Assembly (NCBI GenBank): GCA_000002445.1
Contig: CP000067.1
Span: forward strand, 832,001 to 896,000
DNA length: 64,000 nt
Origin: Trypanosoma brucei
Lineage: Eukaryota
Direction: 5' to 3'
Under the pieces are notes generated by a model. It saw only the letters and a program-made list of their open reading frames with translations, made no database searches and was not told where the DNA came from. Below are positions 10,080 to 29,733 of this stretch, piece by piece (within the stretch, counting starts at the first letter, position 1; each line of letters opens with the position of its first letter). Made by a program: the position numbers and the translations under genes.

Positions 10080-10800
10080 CTCCAAAACCATGAAAAAAAG
10101 GACATATTGCACACATTTGTTTTCCCCTTATTTTCCTTCCTGTCACTGTTCCTTTCCCAGCCCAGTTCCAGTTTCCCATGACAGCACGGGTCCAATACCT
10201 TCCTCTTTTATAATGAACAATGGGGCATTTGATGGAATGTTTGCAGCAGCACCGCAACACCCCGCCACACATTGCAGCCTCGTGAGGTGATGTTTGAACT
10301 CTGTTGGTATGGGGGTCATCCTCTCCCTGCCTTTCTGGTATTTTAGCATTGCTTTCTCAACCAACCCAATAAAAGAAAAAGCAAAGCAAGGCAAAGAGCA
10401 AAAAGAGACGAGCCGTCCACTGACTCACGTTTTAGTTGATGGGGATGTTACTCTCGATGTAATGAATAATGGATATGCTGCTTCATTAGTAACTAAAACA
10501 GCGACCCCTTTTCCTTTCATTCGTTTCCGTCCCAAATGTCACCACCTCAGGCCACACACACACGCACAATCTCAATCCCTCTTCCCCTTTCATCCGAACA
10601 TTAAAATTTCACGGCAGCAAAATTGAGGGAAACGGAGAAATGACGAAAACCTACGCCGATCGGGACTCGAACCCGAGACCTTCGCCGTGTTAAAGCGACG
10701 TCATAACCACCTAGACCATCAGCGCTTGCCCGCTCCGGCAATTTTTGTATCATTTCCTCAGTTCAATTGATTTAAACACGAAAACGACTGACGGTGGTGG
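10080..10800. repeat. Inverted repeat, left arm (721 bp): noncoding segment plus tRNA-Val plus the 3' 12 nt of tRNA-Leu
   Basis: By eye, this is the reverse complement of 29012-29733 at about 98% identity. The ORF-track 110-aa ORFs at 10294-10626 (+) and 29186-29518 (-) are identical. Boundaries were located by direct comparison. Confidence 0.85.
10652..10725 (-). tRNA. tRNA-Val(AAC)
   Basis: 74 nt. Acceptor stem GCGCTGA/TCGGCGT (two G-U pairs); anticodon arm TCGCT-TTAACAC-GGCGA; T-arm TCGGG-TTCGAGT-CCCGA; GG in the D-loop. A T4 run follows on the minus strand. An identical copy lies at 29087-29160. Confidence 0.9.
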
Positions 10801-10822
10801 GGTTCGAACCCACGCCCCTAGA

Positions 10823-10861
<39 letters not shown>

Positions 10862-10868
10862 CACCGCC
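10789..10868 (-). tRNA. tRNA-Leu(TAG), type II with long variable arm
   Basis: Acceptor stem GGCGGTG/CACCGTC; D-arm GCC-GAGTGGTCTAAG-GGC; anticodon arm CCAGA-TTTAGGC-TCTGG; T-arm GTGGG-TTCGAAC-CCCAC. A T4 run follows downstream. Confidence 0.85.
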
Positions 10869-10926
10869 ACCACCGCCGGTTTCGCGGGCGAATTTCTGTT
10901 ATAAACTTACTCCCGCAGTAAAAATA

Positions 10927-10999
10927 TGCGATCGGTGAGGCTCGAACTCACGACCTTGGGATTATGAAACCCACGCGCTGCCGACTGCGCCACGCTCGC
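10927..10999 (-). tRNA. tRNA-Met(CAT), elongator-type
   Basis: 73 nt with standard numbering. D-stem GCGC/GCGC; anticodon loop TTCATAA; T-arm GTGAG-TTCGAGC-CTCAC; G1:C72 and T54, so not initiator-like. A T5 run follows downstream. An identical copy lies at 28774-28846. Confidence 0.85.
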
Positions 11000-13900
11000 A
11001 GCAGCTTCCGTCACATTTCGGATTGCCTTTTAACGGCTGGAAATCAGTTTCCAACCAGCAGGCTCATTCTGTAAATTCGCGCTGGGAAGCTTACATCCGC
11101 TTCTTCTATGCGAACACAACAATATACTTTCAAAATAACTACTCACTGTGAAAGTATCATATTTTACTGTTTTTATGTCGTCCCACTGAAGGAGTTTGGT
11201 GTATACATGAAGCATCCGCCGCAACGACAGCTGAAATAACACCTTTTCTCCACGCGAACGCCATTGAATATGGGTTGCCTAGAGGACTGGACGGAACAAC
11301 GGGAAGTACGTGTACACGGCGTCTGGAGCTCGTAAAAAATTAAATGGAATAGTTATACTTGTATTTATTTCAACGGTTAAGAAGATTGATCGTTATGGTA
11401 AAAGTATGGAAAGAAGTAAAAATAAGGTAGCGTTGAATGAGGAGTCGTGAAGGGGATGAAAATGAAAGAATGCTCCAACTCGCAGACTTTATTCTCACTA
11501 ACTAGATCCGCTTTACCGTATATTTCAATGTAGTATAAGAGTGTTATTCTTCCGCGAGGTGAGTGTGAGATTTGTAAAGGTGAGCATCCCCTCACGCTGT
11601 TGGTACAGAGCCATCGGTGTCGGAAGCGGCTGCTGCCATATATCCGCGGAATGTGAATGACCTCCAGGAAACAGTAGAAGCCACCAGAAAGGAAGTAAAG
11701 TGAGATTTTCCCATGATAATCCTAGAATCAACGCTAGCCCTTGGTTTCTCACAAGTTTGTATCTTTTTTTTTCCTTTATCGTCTTGTTACGTTTTGCAAT
11801 TCACCCTTTTTTTTCGAGCCTCTCCTTAAACTTTTTTTTCAAGAACCTTTCTCGTTTCTTATTTAAATAATTATTAGAGTTTATATCCTGGATACCTTCA
11901 TGAAGTTCTTTTGCGTCCCTTTTTGAAACCTATGTGCATGGCACCGTTGTAATGTTTCACAAATCCTGTTGCATTCCATGCGATTGAGATTCATATCTTC
12001 CCTGGAGGCGTCAGAAATTGCAGAGTAATGGTGAGTTGAGTTTACCGTTAGGGGGAGGCCAAATGACTGTTCGCACCCTGTCATCAGGGAGACATGGCAG
12101 CTCACCGGCTGTTGGTTGTTGGGGTAACGGGGGAAGTGGAAACGATATTGGCTCCCTGATGTGGGAACCGATATCTTTGTTGTCCCTTGCACGCTCTTGC
12201 ATGTTCCCGTGGGCGTGTAGGGACAACTCCTGTTGTGGAGAAGACATCAGAGGCAACTGTAATTCACCTACTGGCGTATGGTAAGGGACTGTCTCTTCAA
12301 ATTTTTTGGGGGGAAAAAGGAAGGCTTCTTTTGCGTTTTGAAGGGGACATACATCCACGCGACGAAGAAGTGAAATGCAAAATGATGCCTGTATTTCCGG
12401 AACATTGATATAGCAAACCCTTCTAGGGGTTGACGAGTGTCAAAATCGGCAGAAAATAGCACAGGTAGAATGCAAGGCTCGTAACAAAATGGAAACTGGA
12501 AGAGTGTCAGTTAAACCGAAACTCGCTCAGGAGTAGTGGAACACACTCGTGTCAATATTTTTCTGTGGCCAAATCTGGAATCACCTGACCACTACTGGAA
12601 GGTTGCATGGAAGAGATAGTTTGAAGGTTTGCAGAAAGGCAATGGAGTAGCAATTCGACGAAGGAGGAAACTTAAATACCCCACATATCACGCGGAATGC
12701 TGCCTTGGAATAGGATTCCGCAGAATATGAGGGATAAATGTTATTGCCGCCTGAAGGAATAATAGTCACTTATAGGGATAGGGGTTTACGATGGGAATTA
12801 GGCAGTTCCTTCAGCTGTTGGAAGTTTTGAAGCAAATAGACAAGACAGCAAAAACAATGAACTTCCTGAGGAATCAGAGCAGGCAATGCAAAAGGCACTG
12901 ACCGAAGCGCAGAGTAGAACACGATACAAATGTAGATGGTGCGATTATTAGCGTGTTCATGTGTCGGGGCCCATTCTGCACACAAGGAACAAACACTCGG
13001 TGGAAGTTGGAATGAAAAAAGATACAAATGATAAAGCATCTCCGGCATCAAAGACAGCTCCAAAGACCCTCCAACGCTCGCAGTACAAAATGCGTGCAAC
13101 AAAGTGACCTCACTGAACTCATGCAGCGGAAAGGCGAATGCAAAATAGGAAAAAAAGCACAACACTGTAAAAAGTGGGTACTACTCATCTTCCCTAAAAC
13201 CGTCACAACACCCCTCCCCAGGAAGCGCTGCGTAGAGAAAGCGGTCGAAAATGCGGCAAACAGATGGTTGCCGTTTCGCATGCAACTGGCACGTTTCCAT
13301 GCAAGCTATTTCAACCAAAGGATTTGGAGCTAAACACAGAGGAGCGTCAACAGACTCAAGATAACTGTCAAAGGAATTCACACTGAAACGACCATGGGTT
13401 GGTTCAACACAAAAAAACACGCTCTTAATTAACTCTATAAGATTCTTTCGCATTCCACAGTTTCTCACGTCTCCACTGACTTGTTTCCTCTCTACGAAAA
13501 AGCAGCTCTACTTGTTTGCTACACGTATCTAAAGGGATACTGACACTTTTTTGAAACGTGTTCATCGCCTCATATCGCTTATCTTCAGACTGTTCCCACA
13601 AAGGAGCTGAAGAGCTTAATAAAAATAATAAAAATATGTTCGCATTCATACCATCAAACCCCAATAACGGAAAACATTGAAGAAAAGAATTTCCCTGCAG
13701 TTACTGATATAACATGAAGACCAACAAAAGAACTTACTCAACACTCCATAGATGGTATGTAATTAACATGCACCCAGAAACATACGCAGCCGATAGATAA
13801 TAGAAGGATCGAAATAAGTCCTCAAAATATATGCGATACAGCCTCCACTTTTTTTTTGACCTTCGCCTACGCACAAACCGCTATAAAATTGCTATGTTCC

Positions 13901-15179: not shown

Positions 15180-16109
15180 TTATACTGAAGACGCCATAAG
15201 ACTACTGAAAAGGGAATGGAGTTTGTCAGAGAGGGTGTCAATTCTGGAAGCACGTTCCGACAGCTTAGAAAGCATGACTTCAATTTCTGAGGATACATCA
15301 TTTATTTCTTTGAGGTGAGGAAGAAAAGACTTGAAAACTCTTGTTACGTTCACATCTTCTACCAGGCCGTATCTATTCGCAAGGACCTTGTCCCTACCCA
15401 AATTACCCCTTATTCCCCTGTGTTTGAAGATGTGTCCATGGGAAGTGGACACCGAATCAACTCTGTCAGCCAGTTTTCTTCCTCCAGTGCTATACGCCGT
15501 TCCATTGTGAAACCTCAAGTCGACGTGCTCGTCCCTGCTGCTGTCAAATTCGGTAATTATATCAGAAACGTCCCTTCCAGTTAAGGTTCCATCACACGTG
15601 ACTTGTATCCCATTATTCCTACAAAAGCCATGTGAATTATTCAGCATGCGCACTGCCTCCGATCCAACTCTGTACATCTCCTCCATTGTGGCTGCATACC
15701 TGGTTCCGGTTCTTACAACATCCATTGCCTTTTCCTCCATATAAGAAACACTAAGATCGAATTTCTTCCGTAAGTAGCTTTCACCTTCGAAAACACTCTC
15801 CATCTCATTTAATATTTCCTTCATTTTATCACCCTTCTCTTTTTTCATAAATGGTTTTCCGCGTAGGAATAATTCTCTCCACGCTGCATTCTGTTCTTCT
15901 GCCGAATACCTCTTCTCATACACCTCCTCTGCATGTACTCTAGTTCTTAAAAGTAGATCCTCCGTCACATTAATCATCCAATTAAGCTTCTTCACGACAC
16001 AGTCAATTTGTTTAAGGGTTGAGAGTGCTTCTTTATCAGTCTCCTGCATTCGAGAATCCACCAAGACAACAGAAATTGCAGCAAACACTACCGGAACTAT
16101 CCTCACCAT
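15180..16109 (-). CDS. Array gene B1: secreted-type ~310-aa protein of an unrecognised family, with signal peptide and no GPI-type C-terminus
   Basis: Start chosen at the internal Met (MVRIVPVVFAAISVVLV) of the 15180-16187 ORF, matching the signal-peptide starts of its paralogs. Conserved blocks are IDCVVKKLNWMINVTEDLLLRTRVHAEEVY and DKMKEILNEMESVFEGESYLRKKF. Confidence 0.7.
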   Translation of the reverse strand: MVRIVPVVFAAISVVLVDSRMQETDKEALSTLKQIDCVVKKLNWMINVTEDLLLRTRVHAEEVYEKRYSAEEQNAAWRELFLRGKPFMKKEKGDKMKEILNEMESVFEGESYLRKKFDLSVSYMEEKAMDVVRTGTRYAATMEEMYRVGSEAVRMLNNSHGFCRNNGIQVTCDGTLTGRDVSDIITEFDSSRDEHVDLRFHNGTAYSTGGRKLADRVDSVSTSHGHIFKHRGIRGNLGRDKVLANRYGLVEDVNVTRVFKSFLPHLKEINDVSSEIEVMLSKLSERASRIDTLSDKLHSLFSSLMASSV

Positions 16110-16254
16110 CCCAAGCACTTGTACCACGTAAAAGAGAACTACAGAAAAATACACGTTCTTTAAGAGAAGCACCACACACACACACACGCTAGTAGCGTGA
16201 AACTTACAATTGTAAAAATATTTTAGAAAATTACTAACATTTCCCCACCTATTT

Positions 16255-17439
16255 CTAAAACGGTACCAAGACGCACAAAAGCAACGCTACCCATGGTAGA
16301 GTTTGTTGAAACTTCACCACACCATTATTATCTTCACTATAATTATCATTCCATGGAGAATCCTTCGCGTTTCCTAATGTTTCCGTAAGTTCATTGGTCC
16401 TTTCCTTCATTTTAACAATACTTCTGACTTTTTCTTCAAGTTCCAGAAGCAACCTATCGAGTACAGCTCGTTGAGCTGTGATGGAGGTGTTTCCTGCAGA
16501 TATCTTTATGACGCTGGCACTCAGCAGATCGATTAGTTCCTGAAATTCTTCTCCAATAGAACTGAAGTTTGCCATAAGTCTGTCATTCTGTGTGTAAAAG
16601 AGGCCACCAGAAAGTTCATTGATAAAGGGCTTCTTCCCTTTTGTGTACGGCTGGTATGTCGTCGTGATATAGCATCCATAAACAGCATCGGCACCTTGAT
16701 CTCCTGCATTTCCCATAGTCAAACTGAGTTCTGTATTAAGAGGATTTTCATACTCAGCAAGGCCACCCTCGCTGTGCTGTGGTGGCTCAACTGTGCAGTC
16801 TCTGGGAACACTGCCGCGTTTACCACCTCTTATGCAATCGCCAGTTGCCCCTCCATCCACCACAAGACAGCAATTTCCATATCCTAGTGCTGCATGGTGG
16901 AAAACTTCCACCATATCCTTAATCCAGTACGCGTACGAGTCAGACATATTCAGAAGGTTCCACGATGGCAACCTCATAGCCCGCAGTGAAGTATTCATGT
17001 TTTTAATGCTTTTTTTTAACTCCAATAGTGACTCTTCCGTTTCAATCAACAACTTTGCCACCTCATTCACTCTTTTACCTCCATCTGGAATTACTTCTTT
17101 CAGAACATCCACTAAAATTGTTTTTGTTCGAACACGTGCACTGTAGTGAGCTACAATTTTTTCACAGTCTTCCACTATTTTCTCCCCGAATTTCATATTA
17201 TGTGTCACATTGTTCCTCAGTTCCCTCAGCTTCCTAACTATACTACAGATGGCATTTGCATCACTTTGTGTCAGTGCCTTGCCCTTACCCTTTTCATCAC
17301 CCTCCGGTCCACTGTTAGCACATGCCACCACCAGAAAACTAAACATAATCACCACTCCTCCAACTGAAATCATATTATCACCTTCATACACAAAACAAGC
17401 AAAAAGGAGCTTTGAAAGCATGTGCTTCTTATTCCCCAT
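16255..17439 (-). CDS. Array gene A1: ~395-aa predicted GPI-anchored surface glycoprotein of an unrecognised family
   Basis: N-terminal hydrophobic signal (an alternative start is Met23, MISVGGVVIMFSFLVVACA). Many NxS/T sites. Motif CCLVVDGGATGDC. Hydrophobic C-terminus LPWVALLLCVLVPF. The first ~135 codons are identical to A2 and A3. Confidence 0.75.
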   Translation of the reverse strand: MGNKKHMLSKLLFACFVYEGDNMISVGGVVIMFSFLVVACANSGPEGDEKGKGKALTQSDANAICSIVRKLRELRNNVTHNMKFGEKIVEDCEKIVAHYSARVRTKTILVDVLKEVIPDGGKRVNEVAKLLIETEESLLELKKSIKNMNTSLRAMRLPSWNLLNMSDSYAYWIKDMVEVFHHAALGYGNCCLVVDGGATGDCIRGGKRGSVPRDCTVEPPQHSEGGLAEYENPLNTELSLTMGNAGDQGADAVYGCYITTTYQPYTKGKKPFINELSGGLFYTQNDRLMANFSSIGEEFQELIDLLSASVIKISAGNTSITAQRAVLDRLLLELEEKVRSIVKMKERTNELTETLGNAKDSPWNDNYSEDNNGVVKFQQTLPWVALLLCVLVPF

Positions 17440-17728
17440 ATCATACTGTTATTCAAGTAAAGACAAATCTTCGCTGACACATTATCAAGGCACCCAAAAA
17501 CATGATATCGCAATGCGACCACACGTAGTCGGCCAGAAGCAGCAATAGCATATAAACACACATTCATATTTGCACATGCACATTCATTTCATGGTTATTG
17601 GACGGTTATTTTATGGTTATTTGCAAGAGGAGGGTGCAGTGAGAGTGTTAATACTGCTGACAGTTGTTGAGGCACAGGGTGTAAAAAGAGAAGGTGAGCG
17701 AAAGAGGCGTGTGTTCTCTTTTTCATTT

Positions 17729-18658
17729 TTAAGCTGTGGATATGGTGATGCTGCTGAAGATTGACTGGAGTTCCTTTTCGAGAGCGTCGATTCTGGAAGT
17801 TTGTTCCAACAGCTTGGAAGGCGTGGCTTCAATTTCGGAGATGATGTCGTTGATTTCTCTTAGAGGTGTGACAAACAACTTGAGAAGCTCTGATGCATTC
17901 ACCTTTTCTACCGAGCGAAGTTTATTCGTTTGGACGTTGTCTTTACCCAAATTGTTCCTTATTCCTCTGTGCTTGAGGACGAGCCCAAGGGAGGTGGACG
18001 CCGTATTGACTTTATCGGCCAATTTGTTTCCCCCATGGCTCTGAAACCCTCCACCGGTAAATGACAAGTCCATATAATCAGCGTCGCTGTCGAAATCGCC
18101 AACAATACCGGAAATATCTTTCCCAACAAAAGTTGTCCCGCACTTGACGTATGCACCATTATCCCCACAATAGCCATGCGACTTATTTACAATACATACT
18201 GCCTCTAATCCAACTCTGTACATCTCCACCATTGTGGCTGCATACCTGGTTCCGGTTCTTACAACATCCATCACCTTTTCCTCCAGATAAGAAACATTAA
18301 GGTTAAATTTCTTCCGTAAGTAGCTTTCACCTTCGAAAACACTCTCCATCTCATTTAATATTTCCTTCATTTTATCACCCTTCTGTTTTTTCATAAATGG
18401 TTTTACGTACACGAATAATCGTTCCCAGGCTGCGTATCTTTCCTCCGCCGAATACCTCTTCTCATACACCTCCTCTGCATGCACTCTAGTTCTTAAAAGT
18501 AGATCCTCCGTCACATTAATCATCCAATTAAGTTTCTTCACGACACAGTCAATTTGGTTAAGAGTTGTCAGTGACTCGTCGTTGTCCGCTTCTGGTGACA
18601 TGTTCTCTGCCAACACAACCCAAACTACAAAAAGCATCACTAGAAGTATCCTTATCAT
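17729..18658 (-). CDS. Array gene B2 (309 aa): signal peptide, no anchor signal
   Basis: MIRILLVMLFVVWVVLA signal. Conserved B-family blocks. C-terminus SIFSSITISTA is not hydrophobic. Confidence 0.75.
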   Translation of the reverse strand: MIRILLVMLFVVWVVLAENMSPEADNDESLTTLNQIDCVVKKLNWMINVTEDLLLRTRVHAEEVYEKRYSAEERYAAWERLFVYVKPFMKKQKGDKMKEILNEMESVFEGESYLRKKFNLNVSYLEEKVMDVVRTGTRYAATMVEMYRVGLEAVCIVNKSHGYCGDNGAYVKCGTTFVGKDISGIVGDFDSDADYMDLSFTGGGFQSHGGNKLADKVNTASTSLGLVLKHRGIRNNLGKDNVQTNKLRSVEKVNASELLKLFVTPLREINDIISEIEATPSKLLEQTSRIDALEKELQSIFSSITISTA

Positions 18659-18779
18659 CCTATAAACTTATTCCACACAAAATCGAACTACAGAAAATAA
18701 TGCCCCTTTCCGGAAAGAGACCACACCGCTAGTAACATGAAGCTGTTATTAAAAATATTTTATAAAATTACTCACTTTC

Positions 18780-19970
18780 TCAACTATTTCCAAATACAAA
18801 TGGGAGAAGAAGCAGAGCCACTCCTAGCAGAGTTTGCTGAACCCTTGCTACACTGTCACTCTCATTACTCTCTTTATCATTCCAATGAATATGTTTCACT
18901 ATTCCTAGTGTTTCTGTAAGTTCATTGGTTGTTTCCTTTTTTTCCAGAATATATCTGACTCTTTCTTCAAGTTCCAGAAGCAACCTATCGAGTACAGCTC
19001 GTTGAGCTGTGATGGAGGTGTTTCCTGCAGATATCTTTATGACGCTGGCACTCAGCAGATCGATTAGTTCCTGAAATTCTTCTCCAATAGAACTGAAGTT
19101 GGCAACGACGTTGTTATTCTGTGTGTAAAAGAGTCCTCCTGAAAGTTCATAAATGAGAGATTTCCTCCCCGAAGTGTAAGACTGATGTGTCGTCGTGATA
19201 TAGCAGCCATACTCCGAGTAGTTTCTGTAGTTTCCTGCATTTCCCATCGTTAAAGTGAGTCCTTCATCAAGAGGGTTTTTGTACTCAGCAAGGCTACCCT
19301 CGCTGCGCTGTAGCGGCTCAACTATGCAGTCTCTGGGAACACTGCCGCGTTTACCGTTCTTCATGCAATCGCCCGTTGCCCCTCCATCCACCACAAGACA
19401 ACAACTTAGAGTGCTAAGTGCCGCGTGGGCAAAACTCTCCACCGTGTCCTTAATCCAGTACGCGTACGAGTCAGACATATTCAGAAGGTTCCACGATGGC
19501 AACCTCATATATCCAAGCGACGAATGCATTTGCGCAACTAAATTTCTTAATTCATCTTTCAGTACTTTCATATCGCTCAAAAGCTTTATTATTTCAGTTA
19601 AAATTTCATCTTCTTCCGGAATTACTTCTTTCAAAACATCCACTAAAATTGTTTTTGTTTGAACACGTGCACTGTAGTGAGCTACAATTTTTTCACAGTC
19701 TTCCACTATTTTCTCCCCGAATTTCATATTATGTGTCACATTGTTCCTCAGTTCCCTCAGCTTCCTAACTATACTACAGATGGCATTTGCATCACTTTGT
19801 GTCAGTGCCTTGCCCTTACCCTTTTCATCACCCTCCGGTCCACTGTTAGCACATGCCACCACCAGAAAACTAAACATAATCACCACTCCTCCAACTGAAA
19901 TCATATTATCACCTTCATACACAAAACAAGCAAAAAGGAGCTTTGAAAGCATGTGCTTCTTATTCCCCAT
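18780..19970 (-). CDS. Array gene A2 (396 aa): predicted GPI-anchored surface glycoprotein
   Basis: The 5' ~400 nt are identical to A1 and A3. The central region is divergent. C-terminus LLGVALLLLPFVFGNS is hydrophobic. Confidence 0.75.
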   Translation of the reverse strand: MGNKKHMLSKLLFACFVYEGDNMISVGGVVIMFSFLVVACANSGPEGDEKGKGKALTQSDANAICSIVRKLRELRNNVTHNMKFGEKIVEDCEKIVAHYSARVQTKTILVDVLKEVIPEEDEILTEIIKLLSDMKVLKDELRNLVAQMHSSLGYMRLPSWNLLNMSDSYAYWIKDTVESFAHAALSTLSCCLVVDGGATGDCMKNGKRGSVPRDCIVEPLQRSEGSLAEYKNPLDEGLTLTMGNAGNYRNYSEYGCYITTTHQSYTSGRKSLIYELSGGLFYTQNNNVVANFSSIGEEFQELIDLLSASVIKISAGNTSITAQRAVLDRLLLELEERVRYILEKKETTNELTETLGIVKHIHWNDKESNESDSVARVQQTLLGVALLLLPFVFGNS

Positions 19971-20259
19971 ATCATACTGTTATTCAAGTAAAGACAAATC
20001 TTCGCTGACACATTATCAAGGCACCCAAAAACATGATATCGCAATGCGACCACACGTAGTCGGCCAGAAGCAGCAATAGCATATAAACACACATTCATAT
20101 TTGCACATGCATATTCATTTCGTGGTTATTGGACGGTTATTTTATGGTTATTTGCAAGAGGAGGGTGCAGTGAAAGTGTTAATACTGCTGACAGTTGTTG
20201 AGGCACAGGGTGTAAAAAGAGAAGGTGAGCGAAAGAGGCGTGTGTTCTCTTTTTCATTT

Positions 20260-21204
20260 TTAAGCTGTGGATATGGTGATGCTGCTGAAGATTGACTGGA
20301 GTTCCTTTTCGAGAGCGTCGATTCTGGAAGTTTGTTCCAACAGCTTGGAAGGTGTGGCTTCAATTTCGGAGATGATGTCGTTGATTTCTCTTAGAGGTGT
20401 AATAAAGGACTTGAATATCCTTGGTGAGTGAACAAACTCTACCAAGCCGTTTCCATTCGTGATGACCTTGGATTTACCCAAGTTACTTCTTATTCCTCTG
20501 TGCTTGATGATGTGCCCATAAGAGGTGGACGCCGCATTAACTTTATCGGCCAACTTGCTGCCTCCGTGTCCGCTCTGCGCTACTTTCTGTGTTTTCCTGT
20601 TTTGGAATGACAAGTCGATGTGTTCAGAGCTGTTTTCCAACACTCTAACGACGTCAGAAATGTCTTTCCCAACAAAAGTTGTCCCGCACTTGACGTATGC
20701 ACCATTATCCCCACAATAGCCATGCGACTTATTTACAATACATACTGCCTCTAATCCAACTCTGTACATCTCCACCATTGTGGCTGCATACCTGGTTCCG
20801 GTTCTTACAACATCCATCACCTTTTCCTCCAGATAAGAAACATTAAGGTTAAATTTCTTCCGTAAGTAGCTTTCACCTTCGAAAACACTCTCCATCTCAT
20901 TTAATATTTCCTTCATTTTATCACCCTTCTCTTTTCTCACAAAGTTTTTTACGTATACGTATAATTCTTTCCATGTTGTGAACCTTTCCTCTAGTGAATA
21001 CTTTTTCCCATACACCTCCTCTGCATGCACTCTAGTTCTTAAAAGTAGATCCTCCGTCACATTAATCATCCAATTAAGTTTCTTCACGACACAGTCGATT
21101 CTTTTTAGAGTAAAGCATGGTTCTCTATAACTCACCTGTGTTCTTCCAGCATATGGCAACACAAAGAAAACGACGGTAACGGTCACTTGACTTATCTTAA
21201 TCAT
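20260..21204 (-). CDS. Array gene B3 (314 aa): signal peptide, no anchor signal
   Basis: MIKISQVTVTVVFFVLPYA signal. Shares the IDCVVKKLNWMINV and DKMKEILNEMESVFEGESYLRKKF blocks. The C-terminus is identical to B2. Confidence 0.75.
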   Translation of the reverse strand: MIKISQVTVTVVFFVLPYAGRTQVSYREPCFTLKRIDCVVKKLNWMINVTEDLLLRTRVHAEEVYGKKYSLEERFTTWKELYVYVKNFVRKEKGDKMKEILNEMESVFEGESYLRKKFNLNVSYLEEKVMDVVRTGTRYAATMVEMYRVGLEAVCIVNKSHGYCGDNGAYVKCGTTFVGKDISDVVRVLENSSEHIDLSFQNRKTQKVAQSGHGGSKLADKVNAASTSYGHIIKHRGIRSNLGKSKVITNGNGLVEFVHSPRIFKSFITPLREINDIISEIEATPSKLLEQTSRIDALEKELQSIFSSITISTA

Positions 21205-21337
21205 TCCACACTCTTACTTCAGGAAAAACTAAGCCAGTTCGAAGAGCGTACCTTTTTTGGAAGGGCACATCGCTTACACGCTAGTAGTAATAAGCTGTCA
21301 ATTGCACAAATATTTTAGAAAATTACACACTTTCCAC

Positions 21338-22525
21338 CTATTTCCAAAATACAGAAAAGACGAAAAGAAGCAGAGCCACTTCTGATAGATTTGGTTTCTT
21401 GCTCATACCATCACTCTCATAACTCTCATTATCATACCAGGAAACATCTTCTATGCTTCCTAATCTTTTCGTAACATCCATGACTCTCTTTTTCCTTTTA
21501 AGGATATCTCCAACTTCTTCCTCAAACCTCAGTAACAAGCTGTGGAGTATAGTTCGTTGACCTGTGATAGATGTGTTCCACGTGAAAATGTCGCTGATAC
21601 TAGTGTTCAGTTGATCGATTAGTTCCTGAAATTCTTTTCCAACAGAACTGAAGTTGGCAACGACGTTGTTATTCTGTGTGTAAAAGAGTCCTCCTGAAAG
21701 TTCATTTATAAAGGATTTCTTTGTATTAAAGCCACCTGCGGTGCTTGTGATGTAGCAACCGTAACTATTTGGGGTTTTACCGTAGTTTCCTGAATTTCCC
21801 ATAGTCAAACTGAGTTCTGTATTAAGAGGATTTTCATACTCAGCAAGGCTACCCTCGCTGTGCTGTGGTGGCTCAACTATGCAGTCTCTGGGAACTATTC
21901 CTCGTTTTCGGTCAAAGGGACAATCTTCCATTGACCCTCCATCTACCACAAGACAGCAACTCCCGGGGCTAAACGCTGCATAGTGAAAAAAATCCACCAT
22001 ATCCTTAATCCAGTACGCATATGAGTCCGATATATTTACAAGGTTCCACGATGGCAACCTCATAGCCCGCAGTGAAGCATTCATGCTCGTAATTGTCTTC
22101 CCTAATCCATCCCTCAGTTCCCCCATCTTCTCCAGGATTCTTTCCATCCCACTGAAACTTGACTTTTCTTCTGCCATTACTTTCTCCAACACGCTCACCA
22201 GCATTTTCTTAGACATAACTTTCGCGCCGTAGTAACTTTTCACGTCTTCAGCCTCGTCCACTATTTTCTCCCCGAATTTCATATTATGTGTCACATTGTT
22301 CCTCAGCTCCCTCAGCTTCCTAACTATACTACAGATGGCATTTGCATCACTTTGTGTCAGTGCCTTGCCCTTACCCTTTTCATCACCCTCCGGTCCACTG
22401 TTAGCACATGCCACCACCAGAAAACTAAACATAATCACCACTCCTCCAACTGAAATCATATTATCACCTTCATACACAAAACAAGCAAAAAGGAGCTTTG
22501 AAAGCATGTGCTTCTTATTCCCCAT
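21338..22525 (-). CDS. Array gene A3 (395 aa): predicted GPI-anchored surface glycoprotein
   Basis: Same N-terminus as A1 and A2. Motif CCLVVDGGSMEDC. C-terminus LSEVALLLFVFSVFWK. Confidence 0.75.
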   Translation of the reverse strand: MGNKKHMLSKLLFACFVYEGDNMISVGGVVIMFSFLVVACANSGPEGDEKGKGKALTQSDANAICSIVRKLRELRNNVTHNMKFGEKIVDEAEDVKSYYGAKVMSKKMLVSVLEKVMAEEKSSFSGMERILEKMGELRDGLGKTITSMNASLRAMRLPSWNLVNISDSYAYWIKDMVDFFHYAAFSPGSCCLVVDGGSMEDCPFDRKRGIVPRDCIVEPPQHSEGSLAEYENPLNTELSLTMGNSGNYGKTPNSYGCYITSTAGGFNTKKSFINELSGGLFYTQNNNVVANFSSVGKEFQELIDQLNTSISDIFTWNTSITGQRTILHSLLLRFEEEVGDILKRKKRVMDVTKRLGSIEDVSWYDNESYESDGMSKKPNLSEVALLLFVFSVFWK

Positions 22526-22813
22526 ATCATACTGTTATTCAAGTAAAGACAAATCTTCGCTGACACATTATCAAGGCACCCAAAAACATGATATCGCAAT
22601 GCGACCACACGTAGTCGGCCAGAAGCAGCAATAGCATATAAACACACATTCATATTTGCACATGCATATTCATTTCATGGTTATTGGACGGTTATTTTAT
22701 GGTTATTTGCAAGAGGAGGGTGCAGTGAAAGTGTTAATACTGCTGATGCTTGTAATTAACATTGGCTCAAAAGGAATTATGTTCACGCATTTTTTTTATT
22801 ATACTGAAGACGC

Positions 22814-23740
22814 TCAAAGGCTGTTAAAGAGGGATTCAAGTTTCTTTTCGAGAATAGAAAACTTGTGAACACGTTCCGACAGCTTGGAAGGTGTGGCTTC
22901 AACTTCGGAGGTGAGATTACCGACTTCCCTTAGATGTGTGACAAACAACTTGAGAAGCTTCGCTGCACTCACGTGTTCTACCAAGTCGCGTTCATCCATG
23001 AGAACTCTGGCCTTTCCCAAACTATTACCTATTCCTCTGTGCTTGATGACACGTCCAAACGTGGTCGATACATTATGAACTCTATCAGCCAGCTTGTTTC
23101 CCCCTTTACTCCAGTGACCTCCGTTCTCAAACCTTAGATCTATATTTTCTTCAGTGCCGCTACCAAATTCAGCAACGATAATAGATAAATTTCCCCCAGA
23201 GAAGGCTCTCTCGCATGTAACATTGGCTTCATAAATTTCACAACTTTTTGGTACTTCTTTTCCAGAACGCACAGCTTCCAATCCAACTCTGTACATCTCC
23301 TCCATTGTGGCTGAATACCTGATACCGACTCTTACAATAGTCATCATTTTTTTTTCAAAGTAAGAAACATTAAGGTTAAAGTTTTTCTGCAAGTAGCTTT
23401 CAGTTTCAACGATTCTCTCCATCTCATTTAATATTTCCTTCATTTTATCACCCTTCTGTTTTTTCATAAATGGTTTTACGTACACGAATAATCGTTCCCA
23501 GGCTGCGTATCTTTCCTCCAGCAAATACTTCTTTTTATATACCTTTTCTGCATGCACTCTAGCTCTTAAAAGTAGATCCTCCGTCACATTAATCATCCAA
23601 TTAAGCTTCTTCACGACACAGTCAATTTGCTTAAGAGTTGAGAGAGATTCATCTCCGTGTGTTGTTTCCGCTATAACCCCCCAAAAAACAACTAGAACAA
23701 CTAAAGTGACAGCAAACACCACCTGAATCATCCTCATCAT
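22814..23740 (-). CDS. Array gene B4 (308 aa): signal peptide, no anchor signal
   Basis: MMRMIQVVFAVTLVVLVVFWGVIA signal. Conserved B blocks with a more divergent C-terminal half. Confidence 0.7.
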   Translation of the reverse strand: MMRMIQVVFAVTLVVLVVFWGVIAETTHGDESLSTLKQIDCVVKKLNWMINVTEDLLLRARVHAEKVYKKKYLLEERYAAWERLFVYVKPFMKKQKGDKMKEILNEMERIVETESYLQKNFNLNVSYFEKKMMTIVRVGIRYSATMEEMYRVGLEAVRSGKEVPKSCEIYEANVTCERAFSGGNLSIIVAEFGSGTEENIDLRFENGGHWSKGGNKLADRVHNVSTTFGRVIKHRGIGNSLGKARVLMDERDLVEHVSAAKLLKLFVTHLREVGNLTSEVEATPSKLSERVHKFSILEKKLESLFNSL

Positions 23741-23870
23741 ATGTACCTATTCCACGAAAAGCGAATCACAGGAAAACGTGTAGCCTTTAGTAAGGGTACA
23801 ACACACGCGGTAGTAGAACATAATTGTCGTCTGTATAAATATTTTAGATCACTTACTTCTCCACATACTT

Positions 23871-25019
23871 TTAGAAGAATACCAGGAAGAATAGAAACAG
23901 ACTCACCCCTCGGAGGGTTGGTTGCGTCCCCATACCATCGCTATTCCCACTCTCGTTACCAAACCATGGAATGTTCTTCGTGCTACCTAATGCTTCCGTA
24001 ATTGCTTTGTTCTTTTCTTTCTCAAGGACATGTCTGATTTCTTTCTTCAGCTTAAGTAGCAAACCATCGAGTACAGCTCGTTGTCTTGTAATTGATGTGT
24101 TCCACGCGGAAAAATTGTTTGTGACTCTTCTTAGCGGATCGATTAGCTCCTGAAATTCCTTTCCAACAAAAGTGAAGTTGGCCATAAGTCTGTTATTCTG
24201 TGTGTAAAAGAGGCCACCAGAAAGTTCATAAATGAGAGATTTTTTCCCCCTGCTGTAAGTGTCATTTGTTGTTGTGATGAAGCAGCCACATAGCGGGTAT
24301 TCGCCTTCGTCCCCTGCATTTCCCATCGTTAAAGTGAGTCCTTCATCAAGAGGGTTTTTGTACTCAGCAAGGCCACCCTCGCTGCGCTGTGGCGGGTAAA
24401 TAGTGCAATCCGTGGGGACACTGCCGCGTTTACCACCTCTTATGCAATCTCCCGTTGCCCCTCCATCCACCACAAGACAACAATTCCCGCTTCCGAATGC
24501 TGTCTGGGCAAAGAGTTCTACCATATCTTTCACCCAGTACGCATACGAGTCAGACATATTTGTGAGGTTCCACATTTGCACACTCATGCACCCGAGTGAA
24601 GCGTTCACATTCGTAATACTTCTTTTCAACACCTGGATCGGCTCCTCCATATCACTCAGCAGCTTTCCCATCACGCTCAACTTTTCTCCTTCTTCAGGAA
24701 TTAGTTTTCCCAAAACCTTCACTAACATTTTCTTTGCTTCAACACGTGTGCTGTAGTAAGTAGCAACGTTTTCGCCATTGTCCACGATTTTTTCACCCAA
24801 TTTCATATTACGCGTCACGTTATTTGCCAACTCCCTCAACTGTTTGACCACATTGCAAATGGCATCTGCATCACTTTGCGTCAGCGCCTTGCCCTTACCC
24901 TCGATGTCACCCTCCGCTTGACCGTAAGCACATACCACCACTAAACAAGCCACAACCATTCCCCTTTTGAGTGGCATCATATTATCCCCTCCTTCCAGAA
25001 ACGCAAGAAAGGCAAACAA
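23871..25019 (-). CDS. Array gene A4 (382 aa): divergent A-type predicted GPI-anchored surface glycoprotein
   Basis: Different signal peptide (MMPLKRGMVVACLVVVCAYG), but it shares ALTQSDADAICNVVKQLRELANNVT, CCLVVDGGATGDCIRGGKRGSVP and the ELSGGLFYTQNN blocks. C-terminus LRGVSLFLFFLVFF. Confidence 0.7.
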   Translation of the reverse strand: MFAFLAFLEGGDNMMPLKRGMVVACLVVVCAYGQAEGDIEGKGKALTQSDADAICNVVKQLRELANNVTRNMKLGEKIVDNGENVATYYSTRVEAKKMLVKVLGKLIPEEGEKLSVMGKLLSDMEEPIQVLKRSITNVNASLGCMSVQMWNLTNMSDSYAYWVKDMVELFAQTAFGSGNCCLVVDGGATGDCIRGGKRGSVPTDCTIYPPQRSEGGLAEYKNPLDEGLTLTMGNAGDEGEYPLCGCFITTTNDTYSRGKKSLIYELSGGLFYTQNNRLMANFTFVGKEFQELIDPLRRVTNNFSAWNTSITRQRAVLDGLLLKLKKEIRHVLEKEKNKAITEALGSTKNIPWFGNESGNSDGMGTQPTLRGVSLFLFFLVFF

Positions 25020-25092
25020 ATTGTGGATCCCTACGTGCGTATTCAGTCGGAGAACAGATCTTGATTACAATAAGTAGAACATTTGGGCTATA

Positions 25093-26325
25093 TTACGAAA
25101 ACACCAACAAAACAAAAATGCTCACCATTAAATCGAAATGGGCATCACCCTCCGTGTCAACATCCAAATTTTCTGCCTTGCCCCAGATATCTATGTTTCC
25201 TCCAAGTTTGTACTCAAGAAACATTTCCTCAGCGTCATGCTGTAAATCTTCCAACTCGTAAATATGGGAGTTTGCTTCACTTTCATACTTCTCCATGTCT
25301 TCCATGTTCTTTGTGGCATTGGTGAGACGATTGTGCCACGGTATGCCGCCATGGGATAAGGTGTGTTTGTAATTCACACACGTTGTTCCGGGTCTGTGGC
25401 CATCACATAGAAATGTTTCATTACTCGTATCATTCACGTGGCCAAATACGCCTTCCACCTGAAACTTGTCCTGCCTCATGTTAACAGATTTATCAAACTC
25501 CTCCAATGCAGCCTTTAACAGCTTTGAGTTGGATGCAATGTGCCTGTACACGCATCCGCGCTTTACCACTTGCCAAGCATCTTTGAGTGTCATTGATGAA
25601 TTAACCTCACATTTCTCTTCGGCCAAGGCGCACTCATTGCTCATGCCCGTCCACTTATTTTTTTCTGGTCGCCTCAAGTAGGTCCTGCAGGGCGAACTAT
25701 GCCCGTTGTAATAGTAGCTGCTGCTGTTCGCCTCGTCTTTCGCCTCTCCCACACATACACAAAAAAAGTCGTTAACAAGTGTTTTTCCAGTTTCATTACC
25801 GTTGCTTCCACAGCTTTCCAGAGCAGATTCATTGCTGTTGAACAGTAAACTTTTATTAGTTTCCATAATATCGTCAATGGGTCTGTTGGTCTTATGTGCC
25901 TCATCCACTAAATCACCATACACAGCTTTCATCATGCTCTCCTCAGCCTTACTGCTCTCCCGCATCGCCCTCTTTCTATTCCTGTCAATCTCTCCCTTCA
26001 CCGCTTTTGCTCTTTTGTATAGTTTCTCAATCCCTTCACGCGCCTTTTGGCTCACAGAAGTTTCTTTTCCGTTCGCTCTCGCCTCACTCACCATTACCTC
26101 GAACCTCTTCATAATCTCATCTTCCTTCTCACGGTTTCTAAATTCCGGCCTTGGCACCTTTGCTTGAGTGATCCTGTAAATCTTACAAAGGATCTCAAAC
26201 TCTCCGGTGTTGTGTTGGTAATCAGTAATGTTGAAAACACCCTTCTGTTGACCCTGACTTCCTCTTATTGATCCCCATAAAAGAGCAACCAACAATAGCA
26301 CCCCAGCGCAACCACGTCTCTTCAT
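25093..26325 (-). CDS. Gene C1 (410 aa): predicted GPI-anchored, Cys-containing, charged helical surface protein; paralog of C2
   Basis: Signal MKRRGCAGVLLLVALLWGSIRG. Motifs LVNDFFCVCVGE and CVNYKHTL are shared with C2. Multiple NxS/T sites. Hydrophobic C-terminus LMVSIFVLLVFS. Confidence 0.7.
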   Translation of the reverse strand: MKRRGCAGVLLLVALLWGSIRGSQGQQKGVFNITDYQHNTGEFEILCKIYRITQAKVPRPEFRNREKEDEIMKRFEVMVSEARANGKETSVSQKAREGIEKLYKRAKAVKGEIDRNRKRAMRESSKAEESMMKAVYGDLVDEAHKTNRPIDDIMETNKSLLFNSNESALESCGSNGNETGKTLVNDFFCVCVGEAKDEANSSSYYYNGHSSPCRTYLRRPEKNKWTGMSNECALAEEKCEVNSSMTLKDAWQVVKRGCVYRHIASNSKLLKAALEEFDKSVNMRQDKFQVEGVFGHVNDTSNETFLCDGHRPGTTCVNYKHTLSHGGIPWHNRLTNATKNMEDMEKYESEANSHIYELEDLQHDAEEMFLEYKLGGNIDIWGKAENLDVDTEGDAHFDLMVSIFVLLVFS

Positions 26326-26435
26326 AATTTCCTATTACAACCAAATGGGAAGCAAATATCAACAACATGCCACGCAGCAGCAGTCATTTAGGAAAATGCG
26401 GAAGCTGGGAAAAGCTAAAAATATAACACGGAAAG

Positions 26436-27767
26436 TTAAGCGACAAAGGCAGTCAGCGCCATCATTGCTAAAACAGTCAAAGATATTGAAAAGCCGGCCC
26501 CATCCTCTTCCACCTCGTTCACTTCACTCTCCATCATTAAGTGTTCCAAATTCAAGTTAATCTTTGCTGCTGCACTTTTCATATTCTCCGCTAATTTCCA
26601 CAGCCTTCCAAGCAAAACCTTTGCCTCCTTATTGTGCCTTTCCATTTCCACCAGGTACTTCTCCGCATCCAGCAACCTCAGCTGCCACTCAATTCCCTTC
26701 TGCGTCAGAAGTCTATACGCATAATTCACGCACATTTGGTCATTCTTCCCCGTGCATATGTTTTCGCTGCGGTCAAAAACACCCGTATGTATTTTTTTTG
26801 CTCTCCCAAACACGTAGGTCCGAAATCCCTCCGATTCTTTCATGTTCATGATTATATTCTCCCTCTGCCTTCCAAGAAGCTTATTGAACTCCCTCACTGC
26901 ATCTTGGATTTTTTCTGGCGTTATCAATTTCAAATTTTCATTTTTTGGACAGGCTTCATCCTTTATCTTAAACCAGCCGGGGCCAAAAGCCACATCACTT
27001 CCATCATACGACACATTTTTCCACAGTTTCTTTCTACCCGGCCCCTTGATACTTTTGTGACAAACGGTCTCATTATTCTCTTCTCCAACGCACAAGCAAA
27101 AAAAGTCCCCCACGAGCGAACGCCCAGCCATGGCATCCTCAGTCGAGGGATGATACCCAGCTCCGCACGTTTCCTCTGCGGAGTTTCCTATTAAAGTGTC
27201 TCCGGTGTGCACCGCAAACTTTTCAAACTCCTCCTTCTCCATCAGCCTCCCAGCATTCGCCCCATAAACGACTTGCGCCATTCTTTCGAGTGCAAATTTC
27301 CTTGACACATTCGCCAGGCGCCGTTCCTCTCTTATTCCACTCACGAGTATGGTTGCCTTTTCCGCTAGTTTTATTAACTTCTCATGTGTTACCCTCCACC
27401 GAATAATATCATTTGCACGATGCATACTCATCTTAGCGGCCCCACTATTGTTAACTGTTCCTTTCCTCCTTTCCATAGCTTCTTTATACAAGGAATCCTT
27501 CACGTATGTCGCTTTCACAAACATCTGTAGCCTGTCGATGATACTCGTTAGATTCGCAGGCTCTTCCATTATTTTCTCTGGTTCCCCCTCCGCCAACCTC
27601 AATATCTCACACATTTGGTTGAACTCTTTTTCATTCACTAACTTTGAATCCTCTCCACACACCAAGTGGAAGGCACCAAAGGCCGTTAACAAGAATGTCA
27701 CTATGATTTCCTTCATTATCAAAGCCCTGCTACAAACAAAAAGAAAGTAAAGGCACCAACAAGACAA
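26436..27767 (-). CDS. Gene C2 (443 aa): predicted GPI-anchored surface protein; paralog of C1
   Basis: The probable start is the internal MKEIIVTFLLTAFGAFHLVCG signal at 27716. Motifs LVGDFFCLCVGE and CVNYAYRL. Hydrophobic C-terminus SLTVLAMMALTAFVA. Confidence 0.7.
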   Translation of the reverse strand: MSCWCLYFLFVCSRALIMKEIIVTFLLTAFGAFHLVCGEDSKLVNEKEFNQMCEILRLAEGEPEKIMEEPANLTSIIDRLQMFVKATYVKDSLYKEAMERRKGTVNNSGAAKMSMHRANDIIRWRVTHEKLIKLAEKATILVSGIREERRLANVSRKFALERMAQVVYGANAGRLMEKEEFEKFAVHTGDTLIGNSAEETCGAGYHPSTEDAMAGRSLVGDFFCLCVGEENNETVCHKSIKGPGRKKLWKNVSYDGSDVAFGPGWFKIKDEACPKNENLKLITPEKIQDAVREFNKLLGRQRENIIMNMKESEGFRTYVFGRAKKIHTGVFDRSENICTGKNDQMCVNYAYRLLTQKGIEWQLRLLDAEKYLVEMERHNKEAKVLLGRLWKLAENMKSAAAKINLNLEHLMMESEVNEVEEDGAGFSISLTVLAMMALTAFVA

Positions 27768-28614: not shown

Positions 28615-28686
28615 TTCCGGTGCCGGGGATCGAACCCGGGTCTAGCGGGTGAGAGCCGCTTGTTCTAGCCACTATACCACACCGGA
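28615..28686 (-). tRNA. tRNA-Glu(CTC)
   Basis: 72 nt. Acceptor stem TCCGGTG/CACCGGA; anticodon arm AGCGG-CTCTCAC-CCGCT; T-arm CCGGG-TTCGATC-CCCGG. A T7 run follows on the minus strand (28606-28612). Confidence 0.9.
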
Positions 28687-28773
28687 GATGCATCTCGTCA
28701 AATCTACACTTACGTTCTAAACCATAAGTTGTGATGCAGACGTTCATAATTTACTATCGAGCGGCCCCGCACC

Positions 28774-28846
28774 GCGAGCGTGGCGCAGTCGGCAGCGCGT
28801 GGGTTTCATAATCCCAAGGTCGTGAGTTCGAGCCTCACCGATCGCA
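28774..28846 (+). tRNA. tRNA-Met(CAT), elongator-type, second copy
   Basis: Sequence identical to the 10927-10999 copy, in opposite orientation. Divergent from tRNA-Glu, 87 bp away. T6 run at 28848-28853. Confidence 0.85.
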
Positions 28847-28847
28847 C

Positions 28848-28853
28848 TTTTTT
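28848..28853 (+). terminator. RNA polymerase III T6 terminator for tRNA-Met
   Basis: A T6 run begins 2 nt after the discriminator base. Confidence 0.6.
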
Positions 28854-28889
28854 GATTTCCACCTGCGAGTTTTTCAGCAGGAGAAAACC

Positions 28890-28970
28890 CGTCGACAGCA
28901 GGGTTCGAACCTGCGCGCGAGATCGCATTTGATTTCAAGTCAAACCCCGTAACCACTTGGGTATGTCGAC
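28890..28970 (-). tRNA. tRNA-Ser(TGA), type II
   Basis: 81 nt. Acceptor stem GTCGACA/TGTCGAC; anticodon arm TTTGA-CTTGAAA-TCAAA, which pairs perfectly; 13-nt variable arm; T-arm GCAGG-TTCGAAC-CCTGC. A T4 run follows downstream. Confidence 0.8.
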
Positions 28971-29011
28971 AACGGTTTACCCGACTATTTCAAACTAATA
29001 AAAAAACAGAT

Positions 29012-29733
29012 CCACCACCGTCAGTCGTTTTCGTGTTTAAATCAATTGAACTGAGGAAATGATACAAAAATTGCCGGAGCGGGCAAGCGCTGATGGTCTA
29101 GGTGGTTATGACGTCGCTTTAACACGGCGAAGGTCTCGGGTTCGAGTCCCGATCGGCGTAGGTTTTCGTCATTTCTCCGTTTCCCTCAATTTTGCTGCCG
29201 TGAAATTTTAATGTTCGGATGAAAGGGGAAGAGGGATTGAGATTGTGCGTGTGTGTGTGGCCTGAGGTGGTGACATTTGGGACGGAAACGAATGAAAGGA
29301 AAAGGGGTCGCTGTTTTAGTTACTAATGAAGCAGCATATCCATTATTCATTACATCGAGAGTAACATCCCCATCAACTAAAACGTGAGTCAGTGGACGGC
29401 TCGTCTCTTTTTGCTCTTTGCCTTGCTTTGCTTTTTCTTTTATTGGGTTGGTTGAGAAAGCAATGCTAAAATACCAGAAAGGCAGGGAGAGGATGACCCC
29501 CATACCAACAGAGTTCAAACATCACCTCACGAGGCTGCAATGTGTGGCGGGGTGTTGCGGTGCTGCTGCAAACATTCCATCAAATGCCCCACTGGTCATT
29601 ATAAAAGAGGAAGGTATTGGACCCGTGCTGTCATGGGAAACTGGAACTGGGCTGGGAAAGGAACAGTGACAGGAGGAAAAATAAGGGAAAACAAATGTGT
29701 GCAATATGTCCTTTTTTTTCATGGTTTTGGAGA
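29012..29733. repeat. Inverted repeat, right arm (722 bp), containing tRNA-Val and a 12-nt relic of the tRNA-Leu 3' end
   Basis: CCACCACCGTCA (T-stem plus acceptor 3' strand of tRNA-Leu) is retained at 29012-29023, but the rest of the gene is absent. Homology then continues through tRNA-Val to 29733. Confidence 0.85.
29087..29160 (+). tRNA. tRNA-Val(AAC), second copy inside the inverted repeat
   Basis: Identical to the 10652-10725 copy. A T4 run follows immediately. Confidence 0.9.

Follow-up and report, generated by a model that had tools for sequence, protein, structure and literature searches.

A pair of chromosome-internal ESAG2-family genes on chromosome 4 of Trypanosoma brucei

Results

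Identification of C1 and C2 as ESAG2-family genes

The window analyzed here is a stretch of 64,000 nucleotides from chromosome 4 of Trypanosoma brucei TREU927 (approximately 832,001-896,000), and the subject of this work is a pair of adjacent minus-strand genes, designated C1 and C2, which head an array of genes for predicted surface proteins. A preliminary description had regarded them as divergent paralogues of glycosylphosphatidylinositol (GPI) type that could not be placed in a named family. We found that both are chromosome-internal representatives of the ESAG2 (expression-site-associated gene 2) family of T. brucei, which is derived from b-type variant surface glycoproteins (VSGs) and is known as Fam13. 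Both open reading frames (ORFs) are intact. C1 (25093..26325) encodes 410 aa, as described before, and is an exact match to XP_844478/AAZ10919, annotated as “ESAG protein, putative”. C2 (26436..27716) encodes 426 aa from an ATG at 27716 and matches exactly XP_844479 (UniProt Q584A6), a “hypothetical protein, conserved”. The length of 443 aa originally assigned to C2 is an ORF-caller artefact of a TTG start, the upstream extension (27717..27767, minus strand) being outside the annotated protein. C2 is Tb927.4.3290, which is given as Q584A6 at chr4 complement(858436..859716) in the microarray annotation table of the Kabani 2009 supplement; by gene order C1 would be Tb927.4.3280. The two genes are located in the chromosome 4 core at about 857-860 kb, amid housekeeping genes (FtsH, SET and UPRTase), and adjoin a convergent strand-switch region, where transcription ends. 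Because this location is chromosome-internal and not a telomeric expression site, C1 and C2 should be considered “genes related to ESAG2” and not ESAG2 proper.

The Pfam VSG_B domain (PF13206; curated cut-off 25) was detected in both C1 (95.3 bits, E=5.8e-27) and C2 (125.2 bits, E=4.5e-36). When C1 was used in a homologue search, only ESAG2 and GRESAG2 proteins were retrieved, with 42-47% identity over 91-100% of the length (E=1e-96 to 1e-106). C2 was only 25-28% identical to ESAG2 proper in an identity matrix, and the two proteins showed 24% identity to each other over 342 columns (BLASTP, E=2e-15), which agrees with their being divergent paralogues. A word-indexed homologue search with C2 returned its orthologue alone and missed a 47%-identical paralogue on chromosome 11 that was found through locus context; negatives from that search are therefore weak. 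It has been reported that ESAG2 has its origin in b-type VSGs and groups with T. congolense VSGs as Fam13 (PMC3605285), and in GeneDB Tb927.4.3290 carries the note “similar to T. congolense VSG BENat 1”. Thus, C1 and C2 clearly belong to an already characterized family, an outcome that the preliminary description had itself named as refuting its proposal.

The two motifs that had been noticed in C1 and C2 were present as described, all on the minus strand: DFFCVCVGE at aa 186-194 of C1 (25744..25770) and DFFCLCVGE at aa 204-212 of C2 (27081..27107), and CVNY at aa 316-319 of C1 (25369..25380) and aa 329-332 of C2 (26721..26732). In a family alignment of 17 proteins, made up of 13 ESAG2 proteins together with C1, C2 and the T. 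equiperdum orthologues of both, DFFCxCVGE (its D, F, F, C, C, V, G and E), CV[NS]Y (C-V-x-Y) and seven cysteines, among them the C-x-C of the first motif, were invariant in every member. This invariance makes DFFC[VL]CVGE and CV[NS]Y a signature of the ESAG2 family. In both proteins CVNY is part of a longer segment that the class B protein VSG615 also has, C-x-G-x(4,5)-C-V-x-Y ... I-(P/E)-W.

Strongly hydrophobic 11-residue windows were confined to the extreme N and C termini of C1 and C2, with one exception in C2 (aa 201) that falls on the DFFCLCV motif, and 32-39% of residues in the N-terminal third were charged. These observations are in accordance with the signal peptides, hydrophobic C termini and charged N-terminal regions noted earlier. 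A signal peptide and a GPI anchor have been predicted for Tb927.4.3290 (BigPI, FragAnchor and SignalP positive; Savage et al. 2012). Each protein has several N-glycosylation sequons, a signal peptide that looks cleavable and a short hydrophobic GPI signal at the C terminus. Canonical VSGs were considered and rejected as an identity for C1 and C2. No match to a VSG C-terminal domain of Pfam was seen in either protein at E<=1, the 16-mer of the 3' untranslated region (UTR) was not found at C1 or C2 when 2 mismatches were allowed, and no tandem repeats, 70-bp repeats included, were present in the 9-31 kb part of the window. Furthermore, unlike VSGs, the two genes are single-copy, syntenic, 96% identical in protein sequence between subspecies and chromosome-internal, not subtelomeric, and are therefore not variant antigens.

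Predicted fold

Searches of PDB with the single sequences of C1 and C2 gave nothing useful, and VSG615 was reached by the family profile alone: the ESAG2-family profile matched class B VSG615 (8OK8) with E=3.7e-6 via the C-x-G-x(4,5)-C-V-x-Y...IPW segment and the last long helix. An AlphaFold2 model of C2 (mean pLDDT 55.5; 70-88 in the helical core blocks) contained long helices at residues 56-87, 98-151 and 343-384. When this model was compared with PDB using Foldseek, the first 14 matches were all class B VSGs (VSG615/8ok8, VSG3/6elc and VSG11/8onh), with probabilities of 0.89-1.00 and target-normalised TM scores of 0.41-0.61. The model shows C2 as a three-helix bundle that carries an insert with cysteines, a predicted class B VSG fold. 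Together with the VSG_B matches, these data support the proposal that C1 and C2 are helical surface proteins of GPI type with a VSG-like fold.

Two lineages of ESAG2 genes and a recurring three-gene module

We compared the locus with the syntenic T. b. gambiense chromosome 4 locus (L003) and with a T. b. gambiense chromosome 11 locus (L001). The gene order in the latter is two PAG-like genes, a 488-aa VSG_B protein, a 455-aa ESAG2 (P0003), a 368-aa ESAG11 (P0029) and an ESAG1 fragment, beyond which lie convergent genes. The 488-aa protein (L001 8400-9866) was 47% identical to C2 (E=1e-111), 26% identical to C1 and 21-24% identical to ESAG2 proper, whereas P0003 was 45% identical to C1. Eight cysteines are shared by the 488-aa protein and C2, and their VGDFFCLCVGE and MCVNYA segments are identical. 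Both the identity matrix and a neighbour-joining tree separated two deep clades, one formed by C2 and the 488-aa protein and the other by the ESAG2 proteins, a tight group with 68-94% identity among its members, with C1 as their sister. Judged from these sequences, genes annotated as “ESAG2” comprise two ancient lineages (C2-type and ESAG2-type) that are approximately 25% identical and are accompanied by an ESAG11-type gene.

The ESAG11-type gene next to C1 is A1 (23871..24980, minus strand), which encodes a 369-aa GPI-type protein (XP_844477; Tb927.4.3270 by gene order). Tb927.4.3270 is the example of Fam3, with the label “ESAG11-related”, in Table S1 of the cell-surface phylome. A trio of C2-type, ESAG2-type and ESAG11-type genes is therefore present on both chromosome 4 and chromosome 11, each time adjoining a convergent strand-switch region. 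The conserved order in expression sites is ESAG3, ESAG2, ESAG11, ESAG1 (PMC2567434), and the C2-C1-A1 module mirrors the ESAG2-ESAG11 order of bloodstream expression sites. The spacers between C2 and C1 (26326-26435), C1 and A1 (24981-25092) and A1 and the following gene, B1 (23741-23870), measure just 110-130 bp, and one chromosome 11 spacer is only 11 bp (L001 8389-8399). Such spacers are very short for separate trans-splicing and polyadenylation signals, so that UTRs must overlap adjacent coding sequence.

For the 488-aa T. b. gambiense protein we calculated a mass of 55.4 kDa and counted exactly 6 sequons; it occupies the position of Tb11.01.6230, the neighboring 6210 being mapped to Tb927.11.14600. 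Its gene order, mass and sequon count suggest that it corresponds to Tb927.11.14620 (old ID Tb11.01.6230). It has been reported that this “ESAG2” protein of 56 kDa has 6 N-glycan sites, carries giant poly-N-acetyllactosamine, runs at >100 kDa and is, in the words of its authors, an essential surface GPI glycoprotein (PMC11236118).

Relationship between C1/C2 and the A proteins

A1 and the other A proteins of the array carry the motif CCLVVDGG, which had been proposed to echo the cysteine motif of C1 and C2 and to unite all of them in one superfamily of helical-bundle proteins. This echo did not hold up. The cysteines of CCLVVDGG are adjacent, not arranged as C-x-C, and an ungapped comparison with the C motif gave at most 3 identities out of 9. 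The best 8-mers shared anywhere by the C and A proteins had 5 identities, a level that 91-98% of shuffled sequences reach, and hhalign of the A family versus the C/ESAG2 family yielded a probability of 0.2%.

The relatives of the A proteins were found elsewhere. A1 was 100% identical to P0016, and an exhaustive representative search with the Fam3 profile recovered only Fam3 members and ESAG11 (P0029, chromosome 11, E=6.7e-8), and no ISG or VSG. In the alignment, ESAG11 has WCCLVKG where the A proteins have their CCLV motif, which is the signature of ESAG11. The link of C to A is one of physical linkage and not of a common motif.

Fam3 plus ESAG11 was matched by hhalign to the two PAG-like relatives of a-type VSGs in L001 with a probability of 82% (E=1.1e-5). 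This match covered 146 columns (A1 aa 23-187; L001 5895-7148) and ran from the mature N terminus with a conserved cysteine through both long helices to the CC motif. The PAG-like proteins themselves matched Pfam Trypan_glycop at 4e-12, and the hhalign controls (A vs B, C vs B, C vs PAG-like, B vs PAG-like) remained at 0.17-0.25%, the two that involve PAG-like proteins at 0.17-0.18%. In the Fam3/PAG alignment, the PAG segment DIFFCIAG stands opposite CCLVVDGG. Profile searches of PDB with the A family found designed helical bundles only, and a low-confidence model of an A protein was a long three-helix bundle whose likeness to HpHbR, FHR and GARP was no better than to tektins or BAR domains. 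The sequence matches suggest that the A proteins are plausibly a bundle of the a-type VSG/PAG-like kind. C proteins are certainly b-type. Hence, the idea of a single superfamily is upheld only indirectly: each group resembles VSG-type proteins, no direct link of C to A was found, and the two could share an origin only as far back as the point at which the a-type and b-type VSG folds meet. The PAG-like match of Fam3/ESAG11 differs from the published suggestion of the phylome authors, who proposed an ISG origin for ESAG11 (PMC3605285).

Conservation between subspecies

Values of the ratio of nonsynonymous to synonymous substitution (dN/dS) for C1 and C2 versus T. b. equiperdum and T. b. gambiense were 0.22-0.25 (0.25 for C1 versus T. 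b. equiperdum), indicating purifying selection on both genes. Neither ORF is interrupted in T. b. brucei, T. equiperdum or T. b. equiperdum, and that of C2 is intact in T. b. gambiense too. Synonymous divergence between subspecies was 0.074-0.082 for C1 and C2 and 0.016-0.020 for the adjacent FtsH gene, i.e., four to five times higher in the former. The extra silent change might come from gene conversion with paralogues, from alleles that are old, or from a mutation rate that is raised locally.

Neighboring genes and boundaries of the array

The rest of the tandem array (15180..23740, minus strand) consists of B1, A2, B2, A3, B3, A4 and B4, the A genes belonging to Fam3 and the B genes to Fam4. 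B1 (22814-23740, minus strand) corresponds by gene order to Tb927.4.3260, the Fam4 example in the phylome table. The adjacent AAA/M41 peptidase (FtsH) ORF at 30494-32662 is Tb927.4.3300, a mitochondrial zinc metallopeptidase. Two identities were tried for B and rejected. As a truncated A paralogue, in the style of ESAG7 and ESAG6, B gave an hhalign probability of 0.25%. As a divergent ESAG1 that would complete an ESAG2-11-1 cassette, it showed no Pfam ESAG1 match and an hhalign probability of 0.26% against the chromosome 11 ESAG1 fragment. In both A1 (aa 40-58) and B1 (aa 38-56) the first helix opens with C-x-V-(V/K)-x-L, and an N-V-T sequon follows some 8-10 residues on. The hhalign alignment of A with B is collinear over 171 columns; at 0.25% probability it is no evidence of homology.

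The array is flanked on both sides by tRNA clusters. The right boundary (28615..29732) contains genes for tRNA-Glu, -Met, -Ser and -Val together with one of the two arms of a 0.72-kb inverted repeat, and the left boundary (10080..11000) contains those for tRNA-Val, -Leu and -Met and the other arm. The arms (10080-10800 and 29012-29732) are 99.2% identical and include tRNA-Val(AAC), and an inverted tRNA-Met copy (10920-10999 versus 28774-28853) is 97.5% identical. This inverted pair encloses the entire T. brucei-specific array, which comprises C2, C1 and four A/B pairs; in T. b. gambiense the same pair (98%) brackets a shorter array. The inverted repeat may mark the insertion of the array or may delimit a small transcription unit between tRNA clusters. 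Four A/B (Fam3/Fam4) pairs were present in TREU927 (15180-25019) and two in T. b. gambiense (L003 10001-14802), indicating that the copy number of the array differs between subspecies.

Discussion

Comparison with known systems

In common with ESAG2 and GRESAG2 proteins, C1 and C2 have a VSG_B domain, a signal peptide and a GPI signal and lack the VSG C-terminal domain, and they share LxxDFFCxCVGE, C-x-G-x(4,5)-C-V-x-Y...IPW and the seven invariant cysteines. An ESAG11-type gene comes after C1, just as one comes after ESAG2 in expression sites. Unlike ESAG2, however, C1 and C2 are not telomeric, and C1 lacks the variable K/E-rich insert after CVGEA and branches outside the ESAG2 clade. C2 holds the same place as the Tb927.11.14620 orthologue: each is the leading member of two VSG_B genes that precede an ESAG11-type gene. 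The chromosome 11 protein of 488 aa differs from C2 in its greater length and in an acidic C-terminal extension that precedes its GPI signal, and Tb927.11.14620 is demonstrably expressed in bloodstream forms and was called essential (PMC11236118). With class B VSGs (VSG3/6ELC, VSG615/8OK8 and VSG11/8ONH), C1 and C2 share the PF13206 N-terminal domain and the predicted fold.

A further comparison is offered by the transferrin receptor, ESAG6/ESAG7, which is a precedent for a VSG fold that was turned into an invariant receptor. Like its subunits, C1 and C2 are tandem, divergent paralogues derived from VSGs. However, ESAG6 and ESAG7 are a-type and approximately 89% identical (genetic distance p=0.114), and one of the two has no GPI anchor, whereas C1 and C2 belong to the b-type, share 24% identity and are both of GPI type.

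Proposed role and alternative explanations

Taken together, C1 and C2 are very probably non-variant surface glycoproteins of the ESAG2 family which descended from a b-type VSG, represent two old lineages, form a module with A1 and would be GPI-anchored proteins of bloodstream forms. The best-supported reading is that they are functional, low-abundance, N-glycosylated and GPI-anchored proteins with a b-type VSG fold in the bloodstream coat. The family identity of the two proteins is secure, while their stage of expression and any ligand binding are what we infer. Mature C1 and C2 would be anchored in the cell-body membrane of bloodstream forms. It has been reported that tagged ESAG2 is a cell-body membrane protein kept out of the flagellar pocket and that ESAG11 is found on the cell body and flagellum (PMC4587319); the sources differ on the localisation of ESAG2, since a later paper (PMC6120623) cites that same study for a flagellar-pocket location. 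Being shorter than VSG, C1 and C2 may lie within or under the VSG coat, where, by analogy with TfR, SRA and TgsGP, they would probably bind a host or coat component via a membrane-distal insert.

Several observations weigh against this assignment. The C1 orthologue of T. b. gambiense DAL972 (L003 8757-9990) shares 97% DNA identity, but its frame shifts near codon 221, where tblastn splits it into two frames, and no gene was called there; either C1 is dispensable in T. b. gambiense, as a pseudogene, or the assembly contains an error. In the part of the Lister 427 bloodstream surface-proteome table that was available, no Tb427.04.32xx entry occurred between 04.3150 and 04.3540. The microarray probe for Tb927.4.3290 showed only non-significant changes (adjusted P 0.22-0.39); likewise, in the expression supplements searched, Tb927.4.3290 had no stage signal of significance and 3260-3280 had no entry. 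Confidence in the C2 model is low to moderate, the motif region itself being poorly modelled, and the suggested binding of a ligand is drawn purely from relatives.

It is doubtful that a common cysteine motif (DFFCxCVGE ~ CCLVVDGG) unites C1, C2 and the A proteins in one family. All of them are predicted to have a signal peptide, a GPI-type C terminus and long helices, they are adjacent and co-oriented, ESAG2 and ESAG11 have both been called “VSG-related” (PMC11298655), and the PAG-like segment aligned to CCLVVDGG resembles DFFCLCVG. However, the comparison of family profiles and the shuffled sequences, described above, speak against such a relationship.

C1 and C2 might instead be surface proteins of a tsetse stage (epimastigote or metacyclic) and not of bloodstream forms, as suggested by their absence from the entries seen in the table for cultured bloodstream cells and by the enrichment in salivary-gland stages of Fam1 Tb927.6.1310 and Tb927.7.360-440, which are chromosome-internal, VSG-like or helical-bundle proteins at strand-switch regions. 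Tb927.4.3290 was among the candidates of Savage et al., with no stage profile reported, and all characterized relatives are enriched in bloodstream forms, including ESAG2, the ESAG2/ESAG11 clusters of chromosomes 11 and 1 and Tb927.11.14620. For example, the chromosome 11 cluster Tb11.01.6210-6250 (two ESAG2, one ESAG11, PAG2 and PAG4) is 41-90-fold up in bloodstream forms (PMC2837033). We therefore consider a tsetse-stage role unlikely.

It is quite improbable that an ESAG2-ESAG11 cassette was once copied to the end of a transcription unit and that C1 and C2 are its decaying remnants, devoid of function, as the C1 frameshift in T. b. gambiense, the lack of C1 and C2 in the available surface-proteome entries, the elevated synonymous divergence relative to FtsH and the adjoining strand-switch region might suggest, because the ORFs are otherwise intact, dN/dS is low and every family-invariant cysteine and motif has been kept.

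Within the assignment of C1 and C2 to non-variant ESAG2-family glycoproteins, a more specific function can be imagined, though with very little expectation that it will prove right: the tandem C2-type and ESAG2-type genes, which have stayed together at two loci with an ESAG11-type gene behind them each time, might encode subunits of a hetero-oligomeric invariant surface receptor, similar to ESAG6/7 but built on b-type folds, possibly with the a-type-like ESAG11 as a co-evolving partner.

Significance

The finding that C1 and C2 belong to the ESAG2 family is real but ordinary and adds little by itself, since the genes are annotated in the reference genome and the VSG ancestry of ESAG2 has been published. 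Minor by-products of the analysis are the recurrence of the three-gene module, the split of “ESAG2” into two lineages and the match of ESAG11/Fam3 to PAG-like proteins, which may be of interest to trypanosome surface biologists. ESAG2 is abundant, glycosylated and reportedly essential. Its single-copy, non-telomeric relatives on chromosomes 4 and 11 are easier genetic handles than the multi-copy ESAG2 genes of expression sites, and a hetero-oligomeric receptor, if true, would give the orphan ESAG2 a testable molecular role.

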